12,249 bases of DNA from a virus. Lineage: Duplodnaviria; Heunggongvirae; Uroviricota; Caudoviricetes. The first letter of the stretch is position 1, and the number at the start of each line of letters is the position of its first letter. The stretch spans positions 1-12,249 of IMG/VR virus record IMGVR_UViG_2737471839_000006. One strand, 5' to 3'. Under the pieces are notes generated by a model that saw nothing but the letters and a program-made list of their open reading frames with translations, was not told the origin of the DNA and searched no databases. Both the position numbers and the translations under genes were made by a program. Of the stretch, positions 1-12,249 are shown piece by piece.

Positions 1-109
1 CACCACCCCGTCAGTAGCTGAACAGGAGGGACAGCTGATAGAAACAGAAGCCACTGGAGCACCTCAAAAACACCATCATACACTAAATCAGTAAGTTGGC
101 AGCATCACC
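1..109 (-). mobile_element. IS1 terminal segment, including the terminal inverted repeat; the element continues beyond the window start and includes the first codons of insA on the minus strand
   Basis: Positions 1..109 are the exact reverse complement of the IS1 left end as I recall it (GGTGATGCTGCCAACTTACTGATTTAGTGTATGATGG...GACGGGGTGGTG). The terminal repeat ends at 109 (..CAGCATCACC), where the sequence turns abruptly AT-rich. Recognised from memory, not searched. Confidence 0.85.
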
Positions 110-337
110 CGGGGAACTATAACAATGTTTCTAGCTTGGTGCTGTATGAATTAGTGAATTAGTAGGGAATATATCCACACATTGATTAACACAAAAATAT
201 TTCAGATATTAAATGTAACTCAAAGGATGAGTAATAATGGTTGTGTAGCGTATAACAGGATGCTGAGGTAGTATTAAACAATGAATAAATCTGATTGACA
301 AGCACCAGATAATACTGCGGGTCAATCATTAGACATG

Positions 338-372
338 AACGCCACTAGTTACTGAGAGTAACTAATGGCGTT
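338..372. repeat. Near-perfect 16-bp inverted repeat (AACGCCACTAGTTACT-gag-AGTAACTAATGGCGTT, 15/16), a possible 3' stem-loop or protein-binding site downstream of the HD gene
   Basis: Read directly; one C/A mismatch. It sits 43-77 bp downstream of the minus-strand stop at 415..417. A second AT-rich hairpin (GATGTTTT-ttt-AAAACATC, 387..405) lies between the stop and this palindrome. Confidence 0.4.
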
Positions 373-414
373 GTGTTTATAGTTAAGATGTTTTTTTAAA
401 ACATCAGGGGGGCT

Positions 415-1962
415 CTACTTGTCTTTTTTAATATGTTCAATCTCATCATTAAGACATTTATCTATTTTTTTTATTAACACATTAATTTCTTCGGTGTTTT
501 GGAGTTGAGTTGTCTTAGAAACAAAAACTCGAATAAAGAATTTAACATAGTGATAGGGTTGAAGTACATCGTTATACTTACATAAATCATTTATTGTATA
601 CTTGCCGCCTGTTTCTTTTTTTATTATTTTAGCTTGACTTGTATCGATATCTTTAAAGTTATCTTCAATCTGAAAATCAAGAACCCATTCATCTCCTTTT
701 AAATTATCCTCAATGATTTTGTTGATTTTCTTAGATATATTTTGTTTATATTCTTTGTATCTGTTGTCGGAAATGTTAACATTAGAAAACGTGTGTTTTT
801 TTTCATATATTTTTTTCCAAACATTTCTATCAACAATATCTTGAATTATAGCTTGAGAATTTTTATCTAATGTGTTTTTAAGAGTGTTTTCTAAAAACGT
901 TTTGTCTGGGTTTTCACGATAAAAGTGTTTGATGGACTCAATGAGAGTGTTTTTAGATTTTAAAGAGACAACATCATCAGTTTTTTTTCTAGAACACGCT
1001 TTGTTAAGCATCGCAGATAGTGCACGATTGGTCTTATGAAAATAAACTTGACTATAAAGCCCACTTCTTGCATTGGCAAATTCTAGTATTGAATCCATAC
1101 CACTTTCTTTATATGCCAGGTAAACACTATTTTCAACTTTCACAGGAATAAATGACATTAATAATCGTCCATAATCATAAATCCCATATTTAACGCCGGA
1201 GAAGTAGCTATCTCTAAGTAGGTAGTCCATTCTGTCCGCATCTATAGGTGAAGATGATATGATTGAACCTAATAAAGGATATACATTTACTCCCTCAATG
1301 TTATTTTTAAAATCATATCTTTTATCAACAATTTTTATAATGCTTTCTGGATTAATAGCCGCTATGTTTTCTTTATAGACATCGTCGTCATTTGATTTAT
1401 CTTGGGCTTCATTTTTTAATTCTTCAATAATTTCTTTAATAAAAATACATGATACTTGTTCGTGGGTTAACTTGTCATTATCACTTAAAGATATAATCTT
1501 ATCGTATTGTTTATTTCCTTCAGTTTTGCATTTTTCTTTGAAATCTTTTACGGATATTGCAAAACTATCGAATTGGTGGGCAAGTGGGCCATGCCCAACA
1601 TCGTGTAACAATGCTGCAATACGTAACTCCTGTATAAGACTTGAAGGCATTTTTTTTATATCTAAATATAGATCAATGCCCATATTTTTTCGGTCATAAA
1701 TTAATGCATTCAAATTTATATTTTTCAAAATCTCATACGATAAATGCATTACACCGACAGAGTGTTCAAAGCGAGAGTGCATTGCAGAAGGAAATACTTT
1801 ATATAGAAACGTGTTCTGCCTGATATCTCGTAGTCGTTGGAATAAAGGATGGTCAATTATCTTTTTTTCTAGCTTAGTTATTCGAATCACTCCATGTATG
1901 GGATCTAAAAACTTCCCCAGAAGTAAGTCTTCAAAGTTCTCAAGTTTGTTTTTGTTTGTCAT
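415..1962 (-). CDS. SAMHD1-like HD-domain dNTP triphosphohydrolase (515 aa)
   Basis: Uninterrupted 515-aa ORF with ATG start at 1962..1960 preceded by AAGGAAAG. HD-superfamily motifs are all present: DPIHG (aa 21-24), RFEHS (aa 64-68), LLHDVGHGPLAH (aa 118-129), THEQ (aa 166-169), DADRMDYLLRD (aa 241-251). Spacing and flanking residues parallel human SAMHD1 as I recall it. Very AT-rich with K/N/I-rich codon usage, unlike the flanking prophage genes. Confidence 0.85.
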   Translation of the reverse strand: MTNKNKLENFEDLLLGKFLDPIHGVIRITKLEKKIIDHPLFQRLRDIRQNTFLYKVFPSAMHSRFEHSVGVMHLSYEILKNINLNALIYDRKNMGIDLYLDIKKMPSSLIQELRIAALLHDVGHGPLAHQFDSFAISVKDFKEKCKTEGNKQYDKIISLSDNDKLTHEQVSCIFIKEIIEELKNEAQDKSNDDDVYKENIAAINPESIIKIVDKRYDFKNNIEGVNVYPLLGSIISSSPIDADRMDYLLRDSYFSGVKYGIYDYGRLLMSFIPVKVENSVYLAYKESGMDSILEFANARSGLYSQVYFHKTNRALSAMLNKACSRKKTDDVVSLKSKNTLIESIKHFYRENPDKTFLENTLKNTLDKNSQAIIQDIVDRNVWKKIYEKKHTFSNVNISDNRYKEYKQNISKKINKIIEDNLKGDEWVLDFQIEDNFKDIDTSQAKIIKKETGGKYTINDLCKYNDVLQPYHYVKFFIRVFVSKTTQLQNTEEINVLIKKIDKCLNDEIEHIKKDK

Positions 1963-2023
1963 GAGGCTTTCCTTTTGCTGTAGTTATAATACGAAATTTA
2001 AATAGTAATGATGTTTATAGTTT

Positions 2024-2052
2024 CAATGTGTTATCTAATGGTTAACACATTG
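2024..2052. promoter_or_regulatory. Perfect 10-bp inverted repeat CAATGTGTTA-N9-TAACACATTG, a putative operator or promoter element 62-90 bp upstream of the HD gene start
   Basis: Read directly. On the minus strand the right arm ends in TTGAAA, which could serve as a -35 element. The 10-mer TTCAATGTGT (2022..2031) recurs at 3873..3882 upstream of the second island gene. Confidence 0.45.
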
Positions 2053-2321
2053 TGATGTAGCATATCAATATGGATTCATATGTTCAATTGGTCTGTGGAG
2101 TTTAGTTATGAATAAGATTGATTCTGGTAATACTTTGTAGTTTAAGCTAGAGGCGGGATTCGTGATGTTCAAATCAGTATGTAATGGAGGTTGTGCATTA
2201 GTACTTGCTGCTGGAAATTAAAAATAAAGTTGCAAGTAATCGACGTTTTCCGAGAGGAGGATGTAAGCATCGCTGACCAAAAAGTATCAACGATGCCTGT
2301 TTTGTTTTAACTACAAATTAA

Positions 2322-3824
2322 TTAAATTGCATCTGCAAACTCTGTGATTTTTCGCTCAAGTATGATTGATGAGTTGCTGTTGTCGATTTTTTTATTTTCA
2401 TGATTACGAATAGCCAATGACTCATTAAAGTCTTTTGCGACTGCTGTCTCAATAAATTCAATTTCTGAATCAGAGTGTTTTTTAACAGCTTCTTTGATCT
2501 CATCCAGAGTAACATAGAAAAACTCTTTTCTACGATTTACAAGATTGACTCTCTTTTTATCGAAGACATCATGTAGTTTTTTTTCTAATGATGGAGCGTC
2601 CTCCGAATAAATCATGGCATGCACATCAAAAATAAAAGGAACAGATGCATCACCAAGCTCATTTACACGGTCTTGTGGATCAAGACGTCGTGTCATGCCT
2701 ATTTTATAAACATTCTCCCCAAAAGAACCTATGTTCGAAATAATATAAACATGACCTTGTTTGGTTTGTTGTGCCATGGATAATGCTCTTTGATGCTTTG
2801 ATTCAGCCTGCGACAAACTCTGTTCTAGTTCGGCAATGCGATTTTCGAGGCGCTGCTTCATGTCACCAGTAACTTTTTCCATTTCCTTTCTTGCAGCTTC
2901 AATTGCTTTTTTATAACGGCGCTCTTCTGCCTCTGCGTCTTGCATGGCCTTTTCTATTTCTCGTTGTGCACGCTCCTCCTCTCTCATTTGTGCCCTTATT
3001 TCTGCCTGTTCTTCTTTTTCTTTCTGTTTTTGCTCACGATATTCATGGGTAAGCCACAACTCCTCAAGTTTTTTATTAAGGTATTTAGTATTTATATATA
3101 TGTGATTTTGCTCGTTTAGTTTATTTATGGCCTCAAATGCCTTTGTGATGCGTTCTTCCATTTTAGTGATATTTTTCCACGTGCAATTACTAATTGCAGC
3201 ATCACATTCATTATTAAATGCTCTAGTAGTTAGCCTAATATTTCTGTCTGTCATTTTTTTACCCTCTGCTCGAGAGCCTTCAACAGTCCATTGGGTTGTG
3301 CAATATACTGCACCAGAGTGGGTTTTATCCCGCAGCATTAATTTCTGTTCATCCCTGATGGATTTTATTTTGTTTTTAAATTGCTCTGAATCTTCAAAAT
3401 TAAAATGAGGTTCGTAAAATCCTAGTTCGGCTAGTTCAACATCTTCTGAATAAATAGAAATTTGCTTTACTAGCTTATCATATATTTCTTTCTTCTCTTT
3501 ATAAGTTCTTCTTAGTTCTTGGATTTGTTTATTGATACCATCCATTTTTTCAATGGTGTTTGTTAGTTCATTATTGGCATTTTCTTTTACTTTTTGGGAC
3601 TCTTCTTTTATAATGGAGCATTCTTGCTCTGTTTTCTCAATAAGCTTCTTACATTCCTCTTCCACATTAAAATAATCTGCAAAGCGAGATTTGTATTCTT
3701 CATTTTTTTGATTGCTATCACTTAATTCTAATTGTATTTTTTTGATGCGTTTGATTGCAGCTATATATAGAACAAGAACAACCAATAAAAATATGATTGC
3801 AAGTAATAGTGGAGTTTGAGTCAT
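2322..3824 (-). CDS. Membrane-anchored coiled-coil protein with C-terminal T5orf172/MUG113-type (GIY-YIG superfamily) domain; middle region resembles DUF4041 (500 aa)
   Basis: 500-aa ORF with ATG at 3824..3822 and GGAA upstream. N-terminal hydrophobic helix (LLLAIIFLLVVLVLYIAAI, aa 5-24). Long E/K/Q/R-rich heptad-like segments (aa ~30-130 and ~250-350). C-terminal block GHVYIISNIGSFGENVYKIGMTRR...PFIFDVHAMIYSEDAPSLEKKLHDVFDKKRV...RKEFFYV (aa ~357-440; nt ~2505..2756) matches the T5orf172 signature as I recall it. AT-rich like the HD gene. Confidence 0.85.
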   Translation of the reverse strand: MTQTPLLLAIIFLLVVLVLYIAAIKRIKKIQLELSDSNQKNEEYKSRFADYFNVEEECKKLIEKTEQECSIIKEESQKVKENANNELTNTIEKMDGINKQIQELRRTYKEKKEIYDKLVKQISIYSEDVELAELGFYEPHFNFEDSEQFKNKIKSIRDEQKLMLRDKTHSGAVYCTTQWTVEGSRAEGKKMTDRNIRLTTRAFNNECDAAISNCTWKNITKMEERITKAFEAINKLNEQNHIYINTKYLNKKLEELWLTHEYREQKQKEKEEQAEIRAQMREEERAQREIEKAMQDAEAEERRYKKAIEAARKEMEKVTGDMKQRLENRIAELEQSLSQAESKHQRALSMAQQTKQGHVYIISNIGSFGENVYKIGMTRRLDPQDRVNELGDASVPFIFDVHAMIYSEDAPSLEKKLHDVFDKKRVNLVNRRKEFFYVTLDEIKEAVKKHSDSEIEFIETAVAKDFNESLAIRNHENKKIDNSNSSIILERKITEFADAI

Positions 3825-3872
3825 TCGTGCTATTCCTTACGGACAATTTAAGACGTTTTGTATTAAATCCTG

Positions 3873-3882
3873 TTCAATGTGT
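3873..3882. promoter_or_regulatory. Second copy of the 10-mer TTCAATGTGT, 49-58 bp upstream of the start of the 500-aa gene
   Basis: Read directly; identical to 2022..2031. On the minus strand it reads ACACATTGAAC, again ending in a -35-like TTGAAC. Confidence 0.35.
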
Positions 3883-4152
3883 ATGCGGGTGATTGCTACC
3901 GCTTACAATCTTCATAATTATCAGTTAGATAGACTCGCTAGTAAATAATTTCATTTTTTGCAATATTCTTATTGAATATTTCAATTTATGAAATGAACTC
4001 TTTATCCTTTCAAGGCGAAAGGTTTCTTCTTCGGAAATATTTGCTCTCGTGTGACGTATAAAGGCCTTTGATTTTTAAAAAACAGTAGGGAATAATATAG
4101 TTACTGTCGGCCTGAACACCCGGCGGTGGGGTTGCGCTAAACGGGGACGTTT

Positions 4153-4254
4153 ATGCGCACATACAATCTAAACTCTCTTCTCCCTTCACAGATGCAGAAA
4201 TGCACCTGCGATTTTTTGCATCCAACGTTTGACCTCTGCGGAGGTGAAGCGTGA
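4153..4254 (+). CDS. ylcH: Small 33-aa ORF, YlcH-like, overlapping the ybcN start by 4 nt
   Basis: ATG at 4153 translates to [33 protein letters not shown] and stops within GTGA, which also supplies the ybcN start. Size and position match my recollection of ylcH in DLP12. Too short for the ORF track; hand-translated. Confidence 0.4.
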
Positions 4255-4706
4255 ACCTACCACAAGATGGCATCAAATTACATCGCGGCAACTTCACCGC
4301 TATCGGCCAGCAGATCCAGCCTTATCTGGAGGACGGAAAATGCTTTCGCATGGTGCTTAAACCGTGGCGTGAGAAACGCAGTCTTTCCCAGAATGCACTC
4401 AGCCACATGTGGTACAGCGAAATCAGTGAATACCTTATCAGCAGGGGGAAATCGTTCGCTACCGCAGCATGGGTAAAAGAAGCTCTCAAACACACATACC
4501 TCGGTTATGAAACCAAAGAACTGGTTGATGTCGTAACCGGTGAAATCACCACTATCCAGTCGTTACGCCATACCTCCGATCTTGATGCCGGAGAGATGTA
4601 TGTCTTCCTGTGTAAGGTTGAAGCCTGGGCGATGAATATTGGCTGCCACCTGACTATTCCGCAGAGCTGCGAGTTCCAGCTGCTGCGCGACAAGCAGGAG
4701 GCGTAA
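4251..4706 (+). CDS. ybcN: NinB-family protein (YbcN-like), 151 aa, GTG start
   Basis: ORF track 4251..4706. GGAGGTG sits 5 nt upstream of the GTG. The sequence [19 protein letters not shown]...[18 protein letters not shown] matches the DLP12 YbcN/NinB family as I recall it (lambda NinB has the analogous RSLDQN block). Confidence 0.9.
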
Positions 4707-4876
4707 TGGCTACACCGCTTATTCGTGTCATGAACGGACACATCTACAGAGTACCAAATCGTCGTAAGCGTAAACCTGAGCTGAAGCCATCCGAAATACC
4801 AACACTGCTCGGATATACCGCCAGCCTGGTTGATAAAAAATGGTTGCGACTGGCAGCAAGGAGGAATCATGGCTGA
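4706..4876 (+). CDS. ninE: NinE-family small protein (56 aa)
   Basis: ATG overlaps the ybcN stop (TAATG). Hand translation gives [56 protein letters not shown]. Below the ORF-track size cutoff. Confidence 0.7.
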   Translation: MATPLIRVMNGHIYRVPNRRKRKPELKPSEIPTLLGYTASLVDKKWLRLAARRNHG

Positions 4877-5159
4877 TTTGAGAAAAGCAGCGCGTGGTCG
4901 GGAATGCCAGGTAAGAATCCCTGGCGTATGTAATGGCAACCCTGAAACGTCTGTACTGGCACATATCCGGCTGACTGGATTGTGCGGCACCGGTACCAAA
5001 CCGCCAGACCTGATTGCCACCATTGCATGTTCTGCCTGCCACGACGAAATCGACCGCCGCACACATTTTGTCGATGCCGCATATGCAAAAGAATGCGCGC
5101 TGGAAGGTATGGCGAGAACGCAGGTTATCTGGCTGAAAGAGGGGGTAATCAAGGCGTGA
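4869..5159 (+). CDS. ybcO: YbcO-like putative nuclease (Cys-rich, 96 aa from ATG at 4869)
   Basis: Track ORF 4830..5159 begins at a TTG; the ATG at 4869 is preceded by AGGAGGAA and gives 96 aa ([23 protein letters not shown]...), the size I recall for DLP12 YbcO. Conserved Cys/His residues (C..C..C..H) are present. Confidence 0.75.
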
Positions 5160-5518
5160 ATACCTACAACATCACATTACCCTGGCCGCCTAGCAATAAC
5201 CGCTACTACCGGCATAATCGCGGGCGCACACACATCAGCGCAGAAGGGCAGGCATACCGCGATAACGTCGCCCGAATCATTAAAAACGCAATGCTGGATA
5301 TCGGCCTGGCTATTCCTGTAAAAATCCGCATTGAGTGCCACATGCCGGATCGCCGTCGCCGTGACCTGGATAATCTGCAAAAAGCCGCTTTTGACGCACT
5401 CACCAAAGCAGGTTTCTGGCTGGATGATGTTCAGGTCGTTGATTACCGTGTTGTGAAGATGCCCGTTACCAAAGGTGGGAAGCTGGAGTTGACCATCACC
5501 GAACTGGGGAATGAATGA
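5156..5518 (+). CDS. rusA: RusA Holliday-junction resolvase (120 aa, GTG start overlapping the ybcO stop)
   Basis: Track ORF 4982..5518 is a 5'-extended frame; GTG at 5156 (within GCGTGAAT) gives [23 protein letters not shown]...[25 protein letters not shown], which I recognise as RusA. Confidence 0.9.
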
Positions 5519-5655
5519 TGTTTGAGTCTTATATGGCAGAACGTCTTCGCCACCGCTGGATGCGCCTGCGCTTATATCGTTTCCCCGGTTCTGTTTTGAC
5601 CGATTACCGAATACTGAAGAGTTACGCCAAAACCCTGACAGGAGCAGGAGTATGA
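5515..5655 (+). CDS. ylcG: YlcG-like small protein (46 aa)
   Basis: ATGATG start overlaps the rusA stop (AATGAATGATG). Hand translation gives [46 protein letters not shown]. Below the track cutoff. Confidence 0.55.
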
Positions 5656-5740
5656 AGTCAGAGATAACAACCAACTAATACTGTTTTGTTGATTTTTGCT
5701 TGTAATTGGCGTTCTGGTCTGAGTTTTGTGGAGTAAGTTG

Positions 5741-6124
5741 ATGCGTGATATTCAGATGGTTCTTGAGCGTTGGGGAGCGTGGGCGGCTAATAATCATGAA
5801 GATGTGACCTGGTCGTCCATTGCCGCCGGTTTTAAGGGATTAATTACTTCAAAAGTAAAATCTCGCCCGCAATGTTGTGACGATGACGCGATGATCATTT
5901 GCGGGTGCATGGCCCGTCTGAAAAAGAACAACAGCGATTTGCACGATTTATTAGTAGATTATTATGTAGTCGGTATGACATTCATGTCACTGGCAGGTAA
6001 GCATTGCTGCTCTGATGGTTATATCGGGAAAAGGTTACAGAAGGCTGAGGGCATAATTGAAGGGATGTTAATGGCATTAGATATCCGGTTAGAGATGGAT
6101 ATCGTTGTTAATAACTCTAATTAA
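5741..6124 (+). CDS. quuD: Late-gene antiterminator Q (QuuD-like, 127 aa)
   Basis: Track ORF 5726..6124 starts at an upstream TTG; the ATG at 5741 gives 127 aa ([24 protein letters not shown]...) with Cys clusters ([18 protein letters not shown]) typical of Q-family antiterminators. Position after rusA/ylcG and before the lysis genes is as expected. Confidence 0.85.
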
Positions 6125-6157
6125 TATGCCAATTGTTTACTAAAAATTATTAAAAAT

Positions 6158-6175
6158 GGGGCGTTGAGACGCCCC
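6158..6175 (-). terminator. GC hairpin (GGGGCGT-tgag-ACGCCCC) followed on the minus strand by ATTTTTAATAATTTTT; candidate intrinsic terminator for minus-strand (nmpC) transcription
   Basis: Read directly. The T-rich tract is only on the minus-strand 3' side, 34 nt beyond the quuD stop. Confidence 0.4.
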
Positions 6176-6265
6176 CAAAAATAAAGGGTAATATATAACA
6201 GAAGGTTTATATAGTTAGAAGCAAGGTTGTGCTTCTAAAGGAAGTGGCTTGAGGGAGCCACTTAT

Positions 6266-6304
6266 ATGTTGGGGAGGCAACGCCTCCCGCAACATATCTT
6301 TTTC
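6266..6304 (+). terminator. tR'-like intrinsic terminator candidate (GGGAGGC-aac-GCCTCCC within an extended imperfect stem, then ATCTTTTTCG)
   Basis: Read directly. Lies about 140 nt downstream of quuD, where lambdoid phages place pR'/qut/tR'. Two further hairpins (6218..6237, 6244..6261) sit just upstream. Confidence 0.4.
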
Positions 6305-6313
6305 GTAATCAGA

Positions 6314-7411
6314 TTAGAACTGGTAAACCAGACCTACAGCAACGATGTCATCAGTGCTTACACCGAGTGCTTTAGTGAAGTCATTTTTGTCAAGCAGGTT
6401 GATTTTGTAATCAACGAAAGTAGACATATTTTTGTTGAAGTAATAGGTTGCACCTACATCAACATATTTGACTAAGTCCTGATCGCCCCATACTCCAAGA
6501 TCCTTACCTTTAGATTGCAGGTAAGCAACGGACGGACGCAGACCGAAATCGAACTGATATTGTGCAACAGCTTCGAAGTTTTGGGCTTTATTAGCAACGA
6601 AGTGATCAGCAAATACAGTCATATTCTGGGTTTCAGAATAGGTAGTGGCCAGGTAAATGTTGTTAGCATCATATTTCAGACCTGCGGCCCAAACTTCTGC
6701 ATTTTTACCGGAAGCAAATACTTCAGGAAGAACTTTCCCTGCATTAACTTGAGTGTCGGTACGATCAGATTTCGCATAAGTTGCACCGATACCGAATCCT
6801 TCGTATTCATAGGTAGCAGAGAAACCGAAGCCATCACCGTTACCTTCAGTGTAGTTATCGAAATCGCTACGATCGTTTTTGCCTTGGTACTGAGCAGCAA
6901 AGTTCAGACCATCAACCAGACCAAAGAAGTCGTTGTTACGATAGGTTGCAACACCAGTGGTGCGACCAGTCATGAACACATCTGTTTGGGTCCAGGTATC
7001 GCCACCGAATTCTGGCAGAACGTCAGTCCACGCACCGATGTCGTATGCTACACCGTAGTTACGGCCGTAATCGATTGAGCCGTAGTCACCGAATTTCAGG
7101 CCTGCAAATGCAAGACGGGTTTTGTCTTTGGAGGAACCTTGAGATTCAGCGCGGTTGCCTTTGAATTCATATTCCCACTGACCGAAACCAGTCAGTTGAT
7201 CGTTGATTTGGGTTTCACCTTTGAAGCCAAGACGGGCATAAGTAGTATCACCATCATCTGCATCATTAGAGGAGAAGTAGTGCTTAGCATTAACTTTCCC
7301 GTACAGATCCAGCTTGTTACTGTCTTTATTATAAATTTCAGCTGCCTGAGCAGACATCGCCATCAGTACTGATGCAGCTACAGCAGAAATTGCCACTGTT
7401 AATTTTTTCAT
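6314..7411 (-). CDS. nmpC: Outer-membrane general porin NmpC/OmpD-like, intact (365 aa with signal peptide)
   Basis: ORF track. N-terminal signal peptide [23 protein letters not shown] then AEIYNKD...; C-terminal ...AVGLVYQF, the typical porin terminal Phe. ATG is preceded by AAGGG. Recognised as the DLP12 porin gene, here without an IS interruption. Confidence 0.9.
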
Positions 7412-7840
7412 CGTGAGCCCTTTTTTTTGAACTATTATTAAAAAATGATGTCACTGCGCGATAAATATTCATCTAATCAATGTGATTATTTCAAGATGTA
7501 AGTTTTGGTTTCTCGTTTGATTTGTGAAGTAGATCTCTATTTTTATCTGAACTTTTTTCTATCGAATCCTATTCATAGCTCTTGGCTGAATAAAAATAAA
7601 TCTATTAGCCAATTTATATTAACGACTGTTATTTATAAGTGCTCTATAATTTGAAGGTTCAATTTAAATCGGCTAAAAATAACACTGGAAATTATTTGTT
7701 GGTTATTTGTTGAGGTTTTCTTATGTATTTGTGGTGGTGTTTTGAACACTCGGTAGCATTCTCGCAAATATCATTTAGTGGTTTACGTACGTAAAAAATT
7801 GGTTATGCTGTTAAGAGTGGTTACTTCGTCACACAGCTTA

Positions 7841-7873
7841 AACCCGCCGTCGAGCGGGTTTTTCCATTTTTTG
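7841..7873 (+). terminator. Intrinsic terminator candidate about 110 bp upstream of the holin gene (AACCCGC-cgtcga-GCGGGTT then TTTCCATTTTTTG)
   Basis: Read directly; the T-tract is on the plus strand only. Confidence 0.55.
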
Positions 7874-7984
7874 AGTCTCGATATTAGCTGATAACCCAAT
7901 ACCTGAGTTATTCACTGACTCCGAGTCTGTTACGTTTCGTAGTATTCCCTCAATTTACACCCGCTTTGTCTGCGAGGTGGGGTT

Positions 7985-8200
7985 ATGAAATCCATGGATA
8001 AGTTAACAACGGGTGTCGCCTATGGCACCTCAGCAGGTAGTGCCGGGTACTGGTTTTTACAGCTGCTAGATAAAGTCACGCCCTCACAGTGGGCGGCAAT
8101 TGGAGTGCTGGGTAGCCTGGTATTTGGCCTGCTGACGTACCTGACAAACCTTTATTTCAAGATTAAAGAAGACAAGCGTAAGGCTGCACGGGGAGAGTAA
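7985..8200 (+). CDS. essD: Class II pinholin, phage 21 S21-like (71 aa) with dual-start motif MKSM
   Basis: ORF track. [71 protein letters not shown] is near-identical to S21 as I recall it; two TM segments; Met1/Met4 dual start. Confidence 0.9.
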
Positions 8201-8204
8201 TTCA

Positions 8205-8549
8205 ATGACTCAAAACTATGAACTGATTGTGAAAGGGATCCGCAATTTTGAGAATAAAGTTACGGTAACTTTAGCGTTACGGGACAAAAAACGCTTTGAC
8301 GGTGAAATTTTTGACCTGGACATCTCGCTGGACCGTGTTGAAGGTGCCGCGCTGGAGTTTTATGAGGCAGCAGCCAGAAGGAGCATCAGACAGGTCTTCC
8401 TGGATGTTGCTGCCGGGTTATGTGAAGGGGATGAGCTGTCGCCGGAAAAGCGCCCCATAATTTTAGAGGCGCAGAATGTGTGGATAACCTACAAAGGAAA
8501 GCTACCGGGAAGAATTACTGGTTCTCTGAAGACTCCGCCGAAATGGTAA
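8205..8549 (+). CDS. Hypothetical protein (114 aa) inserted between holin and endolysin; no family recognised
   Basis: ORF track. ATG at 8205 lies 5 nt after the holin stop, with GGAGAG 7 nt upstream, so it is positioned for co-expression with late genes. No motif I can assign. Confidence 0.6.
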   Translation: MTQNYELIVKGIRNFENKVTVTLALRDKKRFDGEIFDLDISLDRVEGAALEFYEAAARRSIRQVFLDVAAGLCEGDELSPEKRPIILEAQNVWITYKGKLPGRITGSLKTPPKW

Positions 8550-8787
8550 TTTCACCAGCATATTTTTCTTCCAGTAATACCGCCAGCCACTTGAAAGAAT
8601 TTTGTTGTTGCTGGGACCATTTGGGGTTGAGTGATTCAAGCTGGAGCGATGCCAGTGTTGGTTGCATTTGTTCCTTGGGAATTGAGAATGCCAGATATGA
8701 AAATGCGACAGTAAGGGCATTTACATCATCCCGAAGCCTGGAAATGCAGTCGAGCAACTCCTGTAGAGAAATGGTGCTATTGTCCAT
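8515..8787 (-). CDS. Hypothetical protein (~90 aa), convergent with and overlapping the 3' end of the 8205..8549 gene
   Basis: Track ORF 8515..8793 starts at a TTG; the in-frame ATG at 8787 is preceded by GAGAGGA at 6-nt spacing on the minus strand. Ordinary Leu/Gln-rich composition; no recognisable family. Confidence 0.5.
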   Translation of the reverse strand: MDNSTISLQELLDCISRLRDDVNALTVAFSYLAFSIPKEQMQPTLASLQLESLNPKWSQQQQNSFKWLAVLLEEKYAGEITISAESSENQ

Positions 8788-8892
8788 AAACAATCCTCTC
8801 TATTGTATTTAACTATTCCTTGCCTGATTCAACAGGCCGGGACAGATAAACATATCCAGGGTTCAGAAACCGATAAATCCTGATAAATATCC

Positions 8893-9426
8893 ATGAACGC
8901 AAAAATCAGATACGGCCTGTCGGCTGCCGTTCTGGCACTGATTGCCGTCGGTGCGCCTGCGCCTGATATTCTCGACCAGTTTCTGGATGAAAAAGAAGGT
9001 AACCACACAACGGCATACCGCGATGGTTCCGGCATCTGGACCATCTGTCGGGGTGCCACGGTGGTGGATGGAAAACCCGTTTTTCCCGGTATGAAACTGT
9101 CGAAGGAAAAATGCGACCAGGTTAACGCCATTGAACGGGATAAGGCGCTGGCATGGGTGGAGCGCAATATTAAAGTGCCACTGACCGAACCACAGAAAGC
9201 GGGTATCGCGTCATTTTGTCCCTATAACATTGGCCCCGGTAAGTGTTTCCCGTCGACGTTTTATAAGCGGCTGAATGCCGGTGATCGTAAAGGTGCATGC
9301 GAGGCGATTCGCTGGTGGATAAAAGATGGTGGGCGCGATTGCCGCATACGTTCAAATAACTGCTATGGACAGGTTATTCGTCGTGACCAGGAAAGCGCAT
9401 TAGCCTGTTGGGGGATAGATCAGTGA
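8893..9426 (+). CDS. SAR endolysin (T4-lysozyme-like muramidase, 177 aa)
   Basis: ORF track. N-terminal weakly hydrophobic Gly/Ala-rich segment ([17 protein letters not shown]), typical of a signal-anchor-release domain. The following E-x8-D-x5-T triad ([16 protein letters not shown]) has T4-lysozyme spacing. Confidence 0.9.
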
Positions 9427-9881
9427 GCAGAGTCGCCGCGATTATTTATGCTCTGGTTATCTGCATCATCGTCTGCCTGTCATGGGCTGTTAATCATTAC
9501 CGTGATAACGCAATCGCCTACAAAGAGCAGCGCGATAACAAGGCCAGTGAACTGGAGAAGGCGAACGCCACCATCGCTGACATGCGGAAGCGTCAACGTG
9601 ATGTAGCAGAACTCGACGCAAGATACACAAAGGAGCTTGCTGATGCTAACGCGACTATCGAAAGTCTCCGTGCTGATGTTTCTGCTGGGCGTAAGCGCCT
9701 GCAAGTCGCCGCCACCTGTGCAAAGTCAACGACCGGAGCCAGCGGCATGGGCGATGGAGAAAGCCCAGGACTTACAGCAGATGCTGAACTCAATTATTAC
9801 CGTCTCCGAAGTGGAATCGACAAGATAACCGCGCAGGTTAACTACCTGCAGGAATACATCAGGACGCAATGCCTGAAATAA
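9423..9881 (+). CDS. Rz: i-spanin Rz (GTG start overlapping the endolysin stop)
   Basis: Track ORF 9408..9881; GTG at 9423 (within CAGTGAGC) gives (M)[33 protein letters not shown]..., closely resembling lambda Rz: N-terminal TM anchor, coiled-coil periplasmic domain. Confidence 0.85.
9637..9828 (+). CDS. Rz1: o-spanin Rz1 lipoprotein, embedded in the +1 frame of Rz
   Basis: Track ORF 9637..9828. Lipobox-like VSAC followed by a proline-rich stretch ([13 protein letters not shown]), entirely inside Rz in another frame as in lambda. Confidence 0.75.
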
Positions 9882-9912
9882 TTTTTTTGCAAATCACAAA
9901 GTCCATTTAATG

Positions 9913-9936
9913 AGCCTCGCGATGCGGGGCTTTTTG
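9913..9936 (+). terminator. Intrinsic terminator after the lysis cassette (AGCCTCGC-gat-GCGGGGCT with one G-U pair, then TTTTT)
   Basis: Read directly, about 30 nt downstream of the Rz stop. Confidence 0.5.
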
Positions 9937-9942
9937 CAATAA

Positions 9943-9967
9943 ATGCGTACCGCAACGCATGTTTTTT
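9943..9967 (+). terminator. Second tandem intrinsic terminator (ATGCGT-accgca-ACGCAT then GTTTTTT)
   Basis: Read directly, immediately after the first. Confidence 0.45.
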
Positions 9968-10082
9968 ACACCGAACCTGCCCCTTTGGAATGGGCCTTTG
10001 AGGATACCAGTTAGTGCTGGCGAGCCTCGGTGGGCTGGTTTCCTGTGCGGCAAAGGTTCATTTCAAAGAGTAGGTACACGCT

Positions 10083-10580
10083 ATGAAATCATTAACCCTC
10101 TTCAATCAACCAATTCGTATCGGTGAAGATGGCATGATCTGCCTCACTGACATGTGGAAAGCTAGTGGTAAAAGTGAATCTGAATCGCCGTACCACTATC
10201 TGCGAAACAAGCAGACCAAAGAGTTCTTAGCCGAGCTGGAGAAAAACCACGAATCTGTGGTTTTTACTGAGCGCGGTGTACACGGTGGAACATATGGCGG
10301 GAAGTTTGTTGCTTACGATTATGCGGCTTGGTTAAACCCCGGGTTCAAGTACGCGGCCTATAAAGTCCTCGATGACTACTTCACCGGAGAACTTCAGCAT
10401 CGCAACAGCTTAAGTGCGCAGCTCAACATGAAATGTCATGAGTTTGACCAGAAGAAAGACATGGCGAGCTTCTGCGGACAAGGGCTGGCAGCATGGCGCT
10501 ATACGAAGCCAGTGTTGGTCGCTGAGATTAACTCCCTGGCTAACCAGCTGCAGATTACGATCCCCGGGCTTCCGGGATGA
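10083..10580 (+). CDS. KilA-N domain protein (165 aa)
   Basis: ORF track. The N-terminal region (..FTERGVHGGTYGGKFVAYDYAAWLNPGFKYAAYKVLDDYF) has the aromatic/AxWLxPxF pattern I associate with KilA-N DNA-binding domains. Confidence 0.75.
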   Translation: MKSLTLFNQPIRIGEDGMICLTDMWKASGKSESESPYHYLRNKQTKEFLAELEKNHESVVFTERGVHGGTYGGKFVAYDYAAWLNPGFKYAAYKVLDDYFTGELQHRNSLSAQLNMKCHEFDQKKDMASFCGQGLAAWRYTKPVLVAEINSLANQLQITIPGLPG

Positions 10581-10852
10581 GTGATCGTGTCATTGAATGC
10601 GCCTCCAGAGCGGGGCGCGACTTCTCAGAGTTCATGAAAGGCGAGAAGGGCATGATGGAAGCATTGGCCTCGGTGGATGAGTTTGGCGAGCAGCTGCGCC
10701 TCAACGGCTGTGTCAATCATCACTTTGTTAGCTACATGATGCGGAACTCGATCATGCAGGCATTCATGGACATGGCAAAAGCCGAGAGGAAAGAAGAGCG
10801 CCGGCATAAGCGAGCGGAAGCAAAAGCAAAAGCAAAAGCAAAAGTGAAGTAG
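10577..10852 (+). CDS. Hypothetical protein (91 aa) with basic C-terminal (AK)n tail; start overlaps the KilA-N stop
   Basis: ORF track; ATGA overlap at 10577..10580 suggests translational coupling. Confidence 0.6.
   Translation: MSDRVIECASRAGRDFSEFMKGEKGMMEALASVDEFGEQLRLNGCVNHHFVSYMMRNSIMQAFMDMAKAERKEERRHKRAEAKAKAKAKVK
10820..10843 (+). repeat. (GCAAAA)x4 perfect tandem hexanucleotide repeat encoding AKAKAKAK
   Basis: Read directly, within the 3' end of the 10577..10852 ORF. Confidence 0.8.
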
Positions 10853-11334
10853 CCATTACAAAGCCCATTTACGGGTGGGCTTGATAATGAAACCGGAATT
10901 TATTCTGGGCCACCAGTTAACGGCAGTACCACGAAACAACCCAAGCCAGTAAGTGGGGAAATAACACTGGCAGCCACTGAAAGATGAAGCTCCTGCCTTA
11001 AGGCAAAAAAGATTCTTTGTGGTGGCGGACTGATGGAAAGACATCGGTTATTGCAGAGGCCATTCAATGAGTGGTCTCGACAATGGCTTATACCCTACAC
11101 GGGATAACTTAACTGATATCCCTTTTAACGGATAAAGGTATTCAAGCCTGACACATCATGCGCTGTATCGTCGCCGTATTCCCGCATTAACCATGACCGT
11201 AGCCCGACGGGGAATTCCTTCTGCGTGAGTGTGCGGGAATAATCAAAAACGATGCACACCGGGGTTACCGGGTACACATATTTCATCATGCCAGCGAGTC
11301 CGGTTCTGGCGCGGAAGAAACCGGACGTTATGAT

Positions 11335-11760
11335 TTAGTGCGGAAATATTTGTGTAGTGTTCTGAATGTTCTCAGTAAATAGTAATGAATTATCAAAGGT
11401 ATAGTAATACCTTTTGTTTTCGTGGATATTTGTAATCCATCTGAAAACCCCTGCTGTAGCAAGATTTTTCCTGTATTCGTAAAATGATAACTCTCCTGAT
11501 TTGAATCCTTTTAAGGTGGCTTCTATAAGGCATTTATTTTTTGAAAATCTTACATTTACAACCTTACCCTGTCCTTTTATTAAAACCGTATTATCGTTTT
11601 CAAGAACAAGATGAATATTCTCTGTGGCTAAATAGTAAATGTAATGTGAGACATTGTGACGTTTTAGTTCAGAATAAAACCAGTGATAGTTTAAATTATT
11701 TCGCACTTTATCGAATATTTGTTTAAAAATGGCAACCTGAGCCATTGTAGTACCTTCCAT
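11335..11760 (-). CDS. ybcV: YbcV-like protein (DUF1398 family); ATG at 11745 would give 136 aa
   Basis: ORF track; AT-rich. [43 protein letters not shown]... recalled as the DLP12 YbcV family. A GTCCGGTT..AACCGGAC hairpin lies just downstream (~11293..11321). Confidence 0.75.
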
Positions 11761-11802
11761 GTGATATGATGGGGCGTAGTCTGCACGATTATCTAAATTG
11801 CT

Positions 11803-12036
11803 TCAATCTGGTCTGACCTGTTTTCTGAGCAATTCAGTAATGTCACTCTTTTCTTTGTTTGCTTCAGGCGAAACTCTTTTTTCTGAGCACAGTCTCCGGC
11901 GGCAGGCTTCAATGACCCAGGCTGAGAAATTCCCAGACCCTTTTTGCTCAAGAGCGATGTTAATTTGTTCAATCATTTGGTTAGGAAAGCGGATGTTGCG
12001 GGTTGTTGTTCTGCGGGTTCTGTTCTTCGTTGACAT
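11803..12036 (-). CDS. Small basic protein, YlcI/DUF3950-like (77 aa as called; start uncertain)
   Basis: ORF track. MSTKNRTRRTTTRNIRFPNQMIEQINIALEQKGSGNFSAWVIEACRRRL... has an Arg-rich N-terminus and a ribbon-helix-helix-like core, and sits immediately upstream of cos as in DLP12/lambda. Confidence 0.6.
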   Translation of the reverse strand: MSTKNRTRRTTTRNIRFPNQMIEQINIALEQKGSGNFSAWVIEACRRRLCSEKRVSPEANKEKSDITELLRKQVRPD

Positions 12037-12149
12037 GAGGTTGTCCCGTATTCAGTGTCGCTGATTTGTATTGTCTGAAGTTGTTTTTACGTTAAGTTGA
12101 TGCAGATCAATTAATACGATACCTGCGTCATAATTGATTATTTGACGTG

Positions 12150-12249
12150 GTTTGATGGCCTCCACGCACGTTGTGATATGTAGATGATAATCATTATCAC
12201 TTTACGGGTCCTTTCCGGTTATCCGACAGGTTACGGGGCGGCGACCTCG
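12150..12249 (+). other. Lambda-type cos site: cosQ-like region and cosN, with the 12-nt cohesive-end sequence GGGCGGCGACCT at 12236..12247
   Basis: 12065..12235 matches the lambda right-end sequence as I recall it (...GACGTGGTTTGATGGCCTCCACGCACGTTGTGATATGTAGATGATAATCATTATCACTTTACGGGTCCTTTCCGG[T/G]ATCCGACAGGTTACG), followed by GGGCGGCGACCTCG. Confidence 0.8.

Follow-up and report, generated by a model that had tools for sequence, protein, structure and literature searches.

A conserved stem-loop at the 3' end of a mobile HD-domain gene in a lambdoid prophage, probably derived from a P2-type tail gene

INTRODUCTION

Why does a long, nearly perfect palindrome lie immediately 3' of an inverted HD-domain gene in a lambdoid prophage, and does it act as RNA, as DNA, or not at all? 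The stretch of DNA analyzed here, hereafter the window, comprises positions 1 to 12,249 (12,249 nucleotides) of the Caudoviricetes record IMGVR_UViG_2737471839_000006 from IMG/VR, and the palindrome lies close to its left end. A sequence-only reading of the window had described two inverted repeats just 3' of the HD stop codon, had remarked that neither was followed by a clean U-tract, and had offered three explanations: a transcript-stabilizing 3' structure, a site for a protein or recombinase, or a relic of the insertion junction of the adjacent IS1. It proposed RNA fold prediction and a comparison with homologs lacking the IS1 as checks. Here we combine both with analyses of the palindrome's distribution, origin, and pairing across bacterial genera.

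RESULTS

Genomic context of the HD gene

The window is a lambdoid prophage, with ybcN/ninB, rusA, porin, lysozyme, and KilA-N genes identified by their Pfam domains. At homologous E. coli loci the genes follow the order cI-like repressor, O/P, ren, leftward HD and DUF4041/T5orf172 genes, and ybcN-ninE-ybcO-rusA-Q. The ren-ninB gap measures 73 nt in phage lambda versus ~4.1 kb of cargo in the window, and this cargo consists of two leftward genes, the HD gene and SNIPE/PD-lambda-1 (Table 1). The PD-Lambda-1 nuclease is the one now named SNIPE (PMC13190303). The annotation of HH45 splits the SNIPE gene into two overlapping pieces, pointing to a frameshift in that strain.

The HD protein is distantly dGTPase-like, scoring under the curated cut-offs (PADLOC dGTPase E 9e-4) and finding no good PADLOC model; it is possibly a dNTP hydrolase. 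The gene occurs as the lone cargo gene in the P2-like S/V hotspot and in several chromosomal islands (loci L046, L047, L051, and L078). It looks like an uncatalogued candidate defense gene, and neither Rousset 2022 nor Vassallo 2022 mentions it, or a terminator at this locus.

The left end of the window is an IS1 end, and the ren stop codon lies ~50 bp to the left of the IS1 insertion point. Three homologous loci (HH45, SCU-111, and 2018-11-3CC) are without the IS1, and in them the same sequence runs on to ren; contigs from IMG/VR likewise match the window from position 110 onward only. The palindrome is present in these IS1-free loci and is unchanged there, bar a G358A substitution in a 92%-identical group, which once more leaves a G.U wobble in the HD-sense reading and C.A on the opposite strand. 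The segment between the IS1 end and the shared cassette flank (window 110-240) is confined to the E. coli prophage lineage, and has neither a match in the phage collection nor an annotated gene.

Table 1. Coordinates and supporting evidence for features at the left end of the window
Feature	Position	Strand	Evidence
IS1 end, inserted ~50 bp past ren	1..109	.	Matches of >=99% identity in >5000 plasmid records; IS1 transposase annotations
C-rich, G-poor stretch downstream of the hairpin, candidate Rho-loading region	200..303	- (HD-sense)	Composition only
3' flank common to HD cassettes of other genera, predicted 3' UTR of the mobile HD unit	241..414	-	blastn
Third inverted repeat, 13 nt, 85% complementary, 11-nt gap	292..328 (292-304 / 316-328)	.	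Inverted-repeat search
Decayed fragment, C-terminal coding end of P2-type gene S (PF05069); ancestral sense +	319..375	+	tblastn, Smith-Waterman
Conserved hairpin, predicted 3' UTR of the HD cassette: 16-bp stem and 3-nt loop (CUC) in the HD-sense reading	338..372	-	Structure, energy, covariation, gpS homology
AT-rich 8-bp hairpin, GAUGUUUU AAA AAAACAUC	387..405	-	Arms 387-394 / 398-405, 8/8 complementary (100%), 3-nt loop
HD-domain gene, 515 aa, whose transcript would bear the hairpin	415..1962	-	Pfam HD
DUF4041 protein, intact, 500 aa, directly upstream of the HD gene	2322..3824	-	PADLOC PD-Lambda-1, E 5e-198

A palindrome far above chance expectation

An inverted-repeat search of the window bore out the description of both repeats. 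The larger has arms of 16 nt (338-353 and 357-372) that are 15/16 complementary (94%) around a 3-nt loop, and begins 42 nt past the HD stop. It is far above chance expectation: a 16-nt arm has 2 matches in the window versus 0.07 expected, and 0 of 200 Markov-shuffled windows contained a perfect stem of at least 12 bp. No second copy of the palindrome was found within the window, and an Rfam scan of the whole window returned no family reaching the gathering threshold.

The sole mismatch in the stem is C.A on the + strand and G.U on the minus (HD-sense) strand, and HD-sense RNA would therefore form an unbroken 16-bp stem. Fold prediction gave this HD-sense hairpin -22.6 kcal/mol, versus -19.3 kcal/mol for the + strand, and the 121-nt region around it, folded as HD-sense RNA, had a z score of -4.98.

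Perfect 8-bp hairpins are expected by chance ~1.7 times per window (0.7 times in the AT-rich 4 kb), so that the small hairpin at 387-405 is not, on its own, beyond chance. It is found in the E. coli lineage only and is missing from the Proteus, Serratia, Enterobacter, and Klebsiella versions, in which the interval still resembles the antisense of the C terminus of gpS (...LALGNVLQE), the product of the P2-type tail-completion gene S. This hairpin is probably a recent, lineage-specific by-product and incidental. Among E. coli homologs, window positions 395-412 hold a T7 or T6 run in the loop of the AT hairpin (A-run of 7 or 6), and the homopolymer at 407-412 beside the HD stop is G6 or G5. The third inverted repeat (292-328), degraded in the 92%-identical E. 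coli variant (SCU-111 group), was treated as incidental.

Small reading frames in the flank were also considered. A minus-strand ORF at 186..329 (47 aa) was treated as noncoding, having no Pfam family and being unannotated in RefSeq homologs, and a tiny ORF past the hairpin (MSND*) varies in length among homologs and is not conserved. Elsewhere in the window, two neighboring perfect 8-9-bp hairpins (6215-6263) lie directly 3' of the minus-strand porin gene (6314-7411) and are probably its terminator region.

The hairpin accompanies the HD gene across genera

The flank that contains the palindrome (window 110-420) was recovered from 21/5426 complete E. coli genomes, each time beside the HD gene, whereas a blastn search of 50,697 phage records, lambda included, gave no match. 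Every match to the hairpin pattern in IMG/VR also adjoins an HD gene. REP, BIME, and ERIC elements were considered as an identity for the palindrome and rejected, as it occupies a median of 1 place per genome (maximum 2) in the E. coli genomes that carry it.

HD homologs with 74-77% identity were found in Proteus, Serratia, Enterobacter, Klebsiella, and metagenomes, in neighborhoods that differ from one another (proBA, T6SS/HigBA genes, purK, and others), and all of them have a homologous hairpin 41-56 nt past the stop codon. Downstream homology extends 110-175 nt beyond the HD stop in five loci (L040, L043, L049, L052, and L059; blastn versus L001), and on the other side the homology of the cassettes with the E. 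coli locus begins ~80-250 nt upstream of the HD start. At ~45% identity, HD homologs are followed by unrelated sequence with other predicted structures.

Probable descent from a P2-type tail-completion gene

The HD gene (64-68% identity) of Yersinia ruckeri, Y. enterocolitica, and a metagenomic P2-like prophage is situated between the tail genes V and S and is convergent with S across a gap of just 3-6 nt. The DNA past the HD stop in these prophages is the antisense of the last ~35 gpS codons, and the DNA of the Yersinia hairpin is the antisense of the codons for YERRQLLGxTDGD. The flanks align as ...ATCGCCGTCGGTTAGCCCTAGCAACTGGCGGCGTTCATATTTTACCGTTGGCCCG in Yersinia and ...AACGCCATTAGTTACTCTCAGTAACTAGTGGCGTTCATGTCTAATGATTGACCCG in the window, where the frame at 319..375 reads GSIIRHERH*LLRVTNGVV against GPTVKYERRQLLGLTDGDV in gpS (tblastn E 0.13).

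Other genera provide the stronger matches. Searched with tblastn, gpS found the Enterobacter (E 5e-6) and Serratia (E 1e-5) flanks, with the aligned peptides GPTIKHEHR*LIGITNGD and GPTVKYERRQLLGLTDGD, respectively, and Smith-Waterman comparison with gpS antisense scored 57 for Klebsiella, 47 for L052, and 45 for Enterobacter (shuffle null 23 ± 2). The window alone scored 28 (null 22.6 ± 2.2), which is not significant, at the same coordinates as the intermediates; the gpS homology of the window therefore rests on those intermediates. For the Klebsiella flank, the best match in 2.3 Gb of phage DNA was to the same part of gpS, in Yersinia phage vB_YenM_42.18 (E 0.2). The gpS genes of P2 and SopEPhi share the C-terminal motif and are not palindromic there; the motif is thus ancestral coding sequence, and the direction of descent is from gpS to relic.

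The S/V hotspot of vB_YenM_42.18 itself (L054, 2962-5441) holds fatty-acid desaturase and acyl-CoA oxidase genes and no HD gene. This cargo too is convergent with gpS, and with a desaturase-gpS gap of just 14 nt its transcripts must end inside gpS antisense.

To describe the intact gene, we sampled 49 IMG/VR loci of the gpS clade, representing 24 distinct versions of the gene segment; HD was present at 1/49 of these loci. A 10-bp repeat (CGCCGTCAGT / ACTGGCGGCG) occurs in 19/24 intact versions, and in 5/24 (those with TDSD or TDDD) it is lost without compensation, leaving a dG of -3 to -9 kcal/mol. The repeat in intact gpS thus looks like a by-product of the ERRQ and TDGD codons, and structural maintenance is specific to the noncoding cassette copies. 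A stop codon within the hairpin interrupts the frame in the cassettes, whose stems reach 16 bp in E. coli and 15 bp in Proteus, against 12-13 bp in most genera. That the palindrome is a carried-over gpS fragment, lengthened once coding ceased, is well supported by these comparisons. The suggestion of a junction relic fails for IS1 and is right in a different sense, since what the palindrome preserves is a more ancient junction, one with the 3' terminus of a P2-type gene S.

Pairing is conserved while the arms change

Across 10 distinct cassette versions, 87.3% of alignment cells were paired, versus 16-53% when the partner column was slid. Both partners had changed at four pairs (one with the states G-C, A-U, and G.U, another with a change from G-C to A-U, and two near the stem ends), and the 11-bp core was ~99% paired. 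When intact gpS genes were included (14 versions), 82.9% of cells were paired, five pairs had changed on both sides, and the observed covariation score was matched by 0/500 shuffles, a statistic that overstates independence for hairpin versions related by descent. Three copies differ from the window at 5/24 core bases and keep 12/12 pairs (P ~0.015 each, by substitution simulation), although per sequence the simulated P values are modest, ranging from 0.015 to 0.35, and the tests are not independent. Taken over these alignments, structure is conserved rather than sequence.

Apparent compensation could also appear without selection, via templated mutation in quasi-palindromes. Quasi-palindrome correction is an established mutational process, and on this account the hairpin would be a nonfunctional fossil of the gpS fragment, perfected and lengthened by template switching and with no selection on an RNA. 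The account is consistent with the presence of the inverted repeat in intact gpS genes, where it is a by-product of coding, with a poor U-tract, and with the descent of all cassette copies from one ancestor, which means that covariation counts are not independent. Template switching gives perfect Watson-Crick pairs, yet the noncanonical cells retained in the core are mostly G.U and on one strand (13 G.U versus 4 A.C on the HD-sense strand). The hairpin is, moreover, kept in every cassette context, even where homology ends 8-16 nt beyond it, whereas the neighboring inverted repeats at 292-328 and 387-405 are not conserved. We consider a fossil of this kind unlikely.

Strand preference and the sequence that follows the stem

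The HD-sense hairpin is the more stable in 12/14 versions, with a mean advantage of 3.4 kcal/mol. This stability bias and the G.U bias point to a single-stranded nucleic acid of HD-sense polarity, and HD mRNA would be the most economical candidate for the folded strand.

We scanned positions 1-2400 on both strands for the consensus of an intrinsic terminator, which includes a U-tract of five or more T in an 8-nt stretch whose start is 0-2 nt past the stem, and found no site; the tail after the stem reads CAUGUCUAAUGA. The earlier remark on the missing U-tract therefore stands. If two basal A-U pairs open, the HD-sense tail becomes UUCAUGUCUAAU. Among homologs, L052 alone passes the consensus (1/4 versions scanned), and the tail of the ancestral hairpin embedded in gpS, UUCAUAUUUUAC, is richer in U. 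The S-orf30 gap of P2 was folded as well, with an uninformative outcome. Farther along the HD-sense strand, the C/G ratio at 200-303 is ~3.2, above the 95th percentile of the window, a figure that describes composition only.

The palindrome sits in the ren-ninB gap of a lambdoid prophage, and it might instead act mainly on the + strand, or on both, as a terminator that stops rightward pR transcription from ren into the inverted cargo. RNA of that strand does fold (at -19.3 kcal/mol), and its tail, GUGUUUAUAGUU, contains more U than that of the minus strand. However, this strand carries one C.A mismatch (two in SCU-111) and gives the weaker fold in 12/14 versions, its tail is not conserved among homologs, the consensus scan did not call a site, and the hairpin is conserved in cassettes outside lambdoid phages. 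Lambda tR2, said to lie in the ren-ninB interval, would share the map position just right of ren; in contrast, the flank described here has no match in the phage collection, lambda included, and its fold favors the opposite strand. A role mainly on the + strand, or on both strands, appears distinctly improbable; a secondary role there, opposing rightward phage transcription, may exist and has less support than the HD-sense one.

Cassette end-points and DNA-level alternatives

Beyond the hairpin, homology between cassettes ends after 8 nt in L062 and after ~16 nt in Proteus. A search for repeats flanking the cassette returned short, chance-level matches only, such as TGTTTATAGTT at 374 and 2012. 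In Proteus mirabilis (L058, ~4640-4671) a 16-nt tandem duplication (GTGACCATGTCTAATG twice) is placed exactly at the 3' edge of the hairpin, and Proteus penneri (L004) has a single copy of the same unit. Two further loci, L049 of Klebsiella (~4772-4793) and L061 (~4838-4900), have matches to both inverted repeats, left and right, that are annotated in the P2-EC58 Z region. These matches (22/22 nt and 22/24 nt) lie ~220-340 nt past the HD stop and are absent from the window; the one to the right repeat, a 22-nt match at ~220 nt in L049 and L061, emerged when the phage collection was searched with the Klebsiella flank. They may belong to a repeat element found at cassette borders.

A palindrome so long and nearly perfect, placed where a mobile cassette ends on its 3' side, could be a DNA site. 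It might be an operator whose symmetry suits a dimeric protein, or else a signal, recognized by its structure, through which recombination moves the cassette, and both the termination of homology within 8-16 nt of the hairpin in two lineages and the duplication in P. mirabilis fit such a role. The protein or recombinase site put forward in the sequence-only reading nevertheless finds no support. The arms drift while pairing is kept, so that it is the pairing and not the half-site sequence that is conserved; end-points differ between genomes (8, 16, and 110-175 nt); no recombinase or regulator accompanies the HD gene at the compared loci; and the palindrome derives from a coding fragment. We regard a DNA site as very improbable.

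A variant of this proposal, to which we give scarcely any credence, is an attC-like single-stranded DNA signal that marks the 3' boundary of single-gene defense cassettes and aids their moves between the hotspots of unrelated phages, in this case out of the S/V hotspot of P2 and into the lambdoid ren/ninB one. Like an integron attC site, the hairpin is an imperfect palindrome that bounds a mobile cassette on its 3' side and has structure conserved over sequence, its strand asymmetry would fit a folded DNA strand too, and homology ends 8-16 nt past it in two lineages. Unlike in attC, the arm ends are CATGAAC ... GTTGTGT (+ strand) rather than RYYYAAC ... GTTRRRY, and the variable end-points, the lack of an accompanying recombinase, and the clear coding-fragment origin all argue against the signal. 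No integron integrase was found by Pfam among the nine largest ORFs of the window.

The remaining proposal, a relic of the IS1 junction, is refuted and receives next to no weight from us, since proximity is all that speaks for it (the IS1 ends at 109) and the palindrome is 228 bp away, has the same sequence at the same place in IS1-free homologs, and recurs as a hairpin in other genera.

DISCUSSION

A proposed 3' end for HD mRNA

We propose that the palindrome probably encodes an RNA stem-loop in the 3' UTR of the HD transcript, which runs leftward, with the stem-loop acting as a weak terminator or as an exonuclease barrier. Conserved pairing, compensatory changes, and wobbles that mostly fit HD-sense RNA favor this reading, and of the three first suggested for the palindrome, a transcript 3' structure is the best supported (by compensatory pairing in the 10 cassette copies and by the HD-sense wobbles); the stabilizing role attached to it is what we infer from that structure.

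In HD mRNA the stem-loop would define and protect the 3' end. It might do so as a leaky intrinsic terminator, for which UUCAUGUCUAAU would serve as a degenerate U-tract, or it might block 3'-to-5' exonucleases after Rho-dependent termination in the downstream C-rich stretch. Either way, the stem-loop would stop transcription of the cassette from running antisense into ren, P, and O.

Both options have counterparts in known systems. Morons are autonomous prophage cargo genes with their own promoter and terminator, described for lambdoid phages. Like a moron terminator, the hairpin closes a cargo gene that opposes the flow of phage transcription, and it moves with that gene and with ~80-250 nt of upstream sequence; unlike a moron terminator, it lacks a clean U-tract, its 16-bp stem is unusually long, and its raw material was part of a structural gene from another phage rather than intergenic DNA. 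As for the second option, 3'-end mapping studies in E. coli have found that stem-loops at 3' ends halt the exonuclease trimming of Rho-terminated transcripts. The HD locus resembles these cases in having a stable hairpin, no U-tract, and then a C-rich, G-poor stretch on the same strand, a likeness drawn here from sequence alone.

A proposed path from coding sequence to structured 3' end

The history that we regard as well supported begins in a P2-like phage, where an ancestral HD gene occupied the S/V hotspot, convergent with S and 3-6 nt from its stop codon. On leaving that phage, the HD gene would have taken along ~100 nt of the antisense 3' end of S, a fragment that would already have contained the 10-bp inverted repeat contributed by the ERRQ and TDGD codons. 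As the reading frame decayed, pairing was kept via compensatory substitutions, and the stem grew loopward: 10 bp around a 13-nt loop became 12-16 bp around loops of 3-7 nt.

Defense genes outside P2 with short, intergenic pseudogene fragments of P2 core genes at their side have been described in bulk (PMC13586616). The HD cassette is like those cases in that a defense-type gene of a P2 hotspot is found in non-P2 islands together with a short, noncoding remnant of a P2 core gene. It is unlike them in that the remnant occurs in a lambdoid hotspot and in several chromosomal islands, and in that its inverted repeat is structurally conserved instead of plainly decaying. Our analysis thus adds the lambdoid hotspot as a recipient, and the maintenance and extension of the inverted repeat of such a remnant.

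In function, the hairpin would be an ordinary element, a 3' stem-loop closing a cargo gene, and it is the origin that is unusual. For practical purposes it marks the true 3' boundary of the HD cassette, which is useful for cloning HD as a candidate defense gene. As a molecular fossil, it records the movement of a defense-type gene from a P2-like S/V hotspot to the lambdoid ren-ninB interval and to several enterobacterial chromosomal islands, with the HD gene carrying a piece of the donor's tail gene along. The hairpin would then be a clear, small case of exaptation, in which a coding fragment decayed while its antisense strand was retained, and extended, in the role of a structured 3' end.
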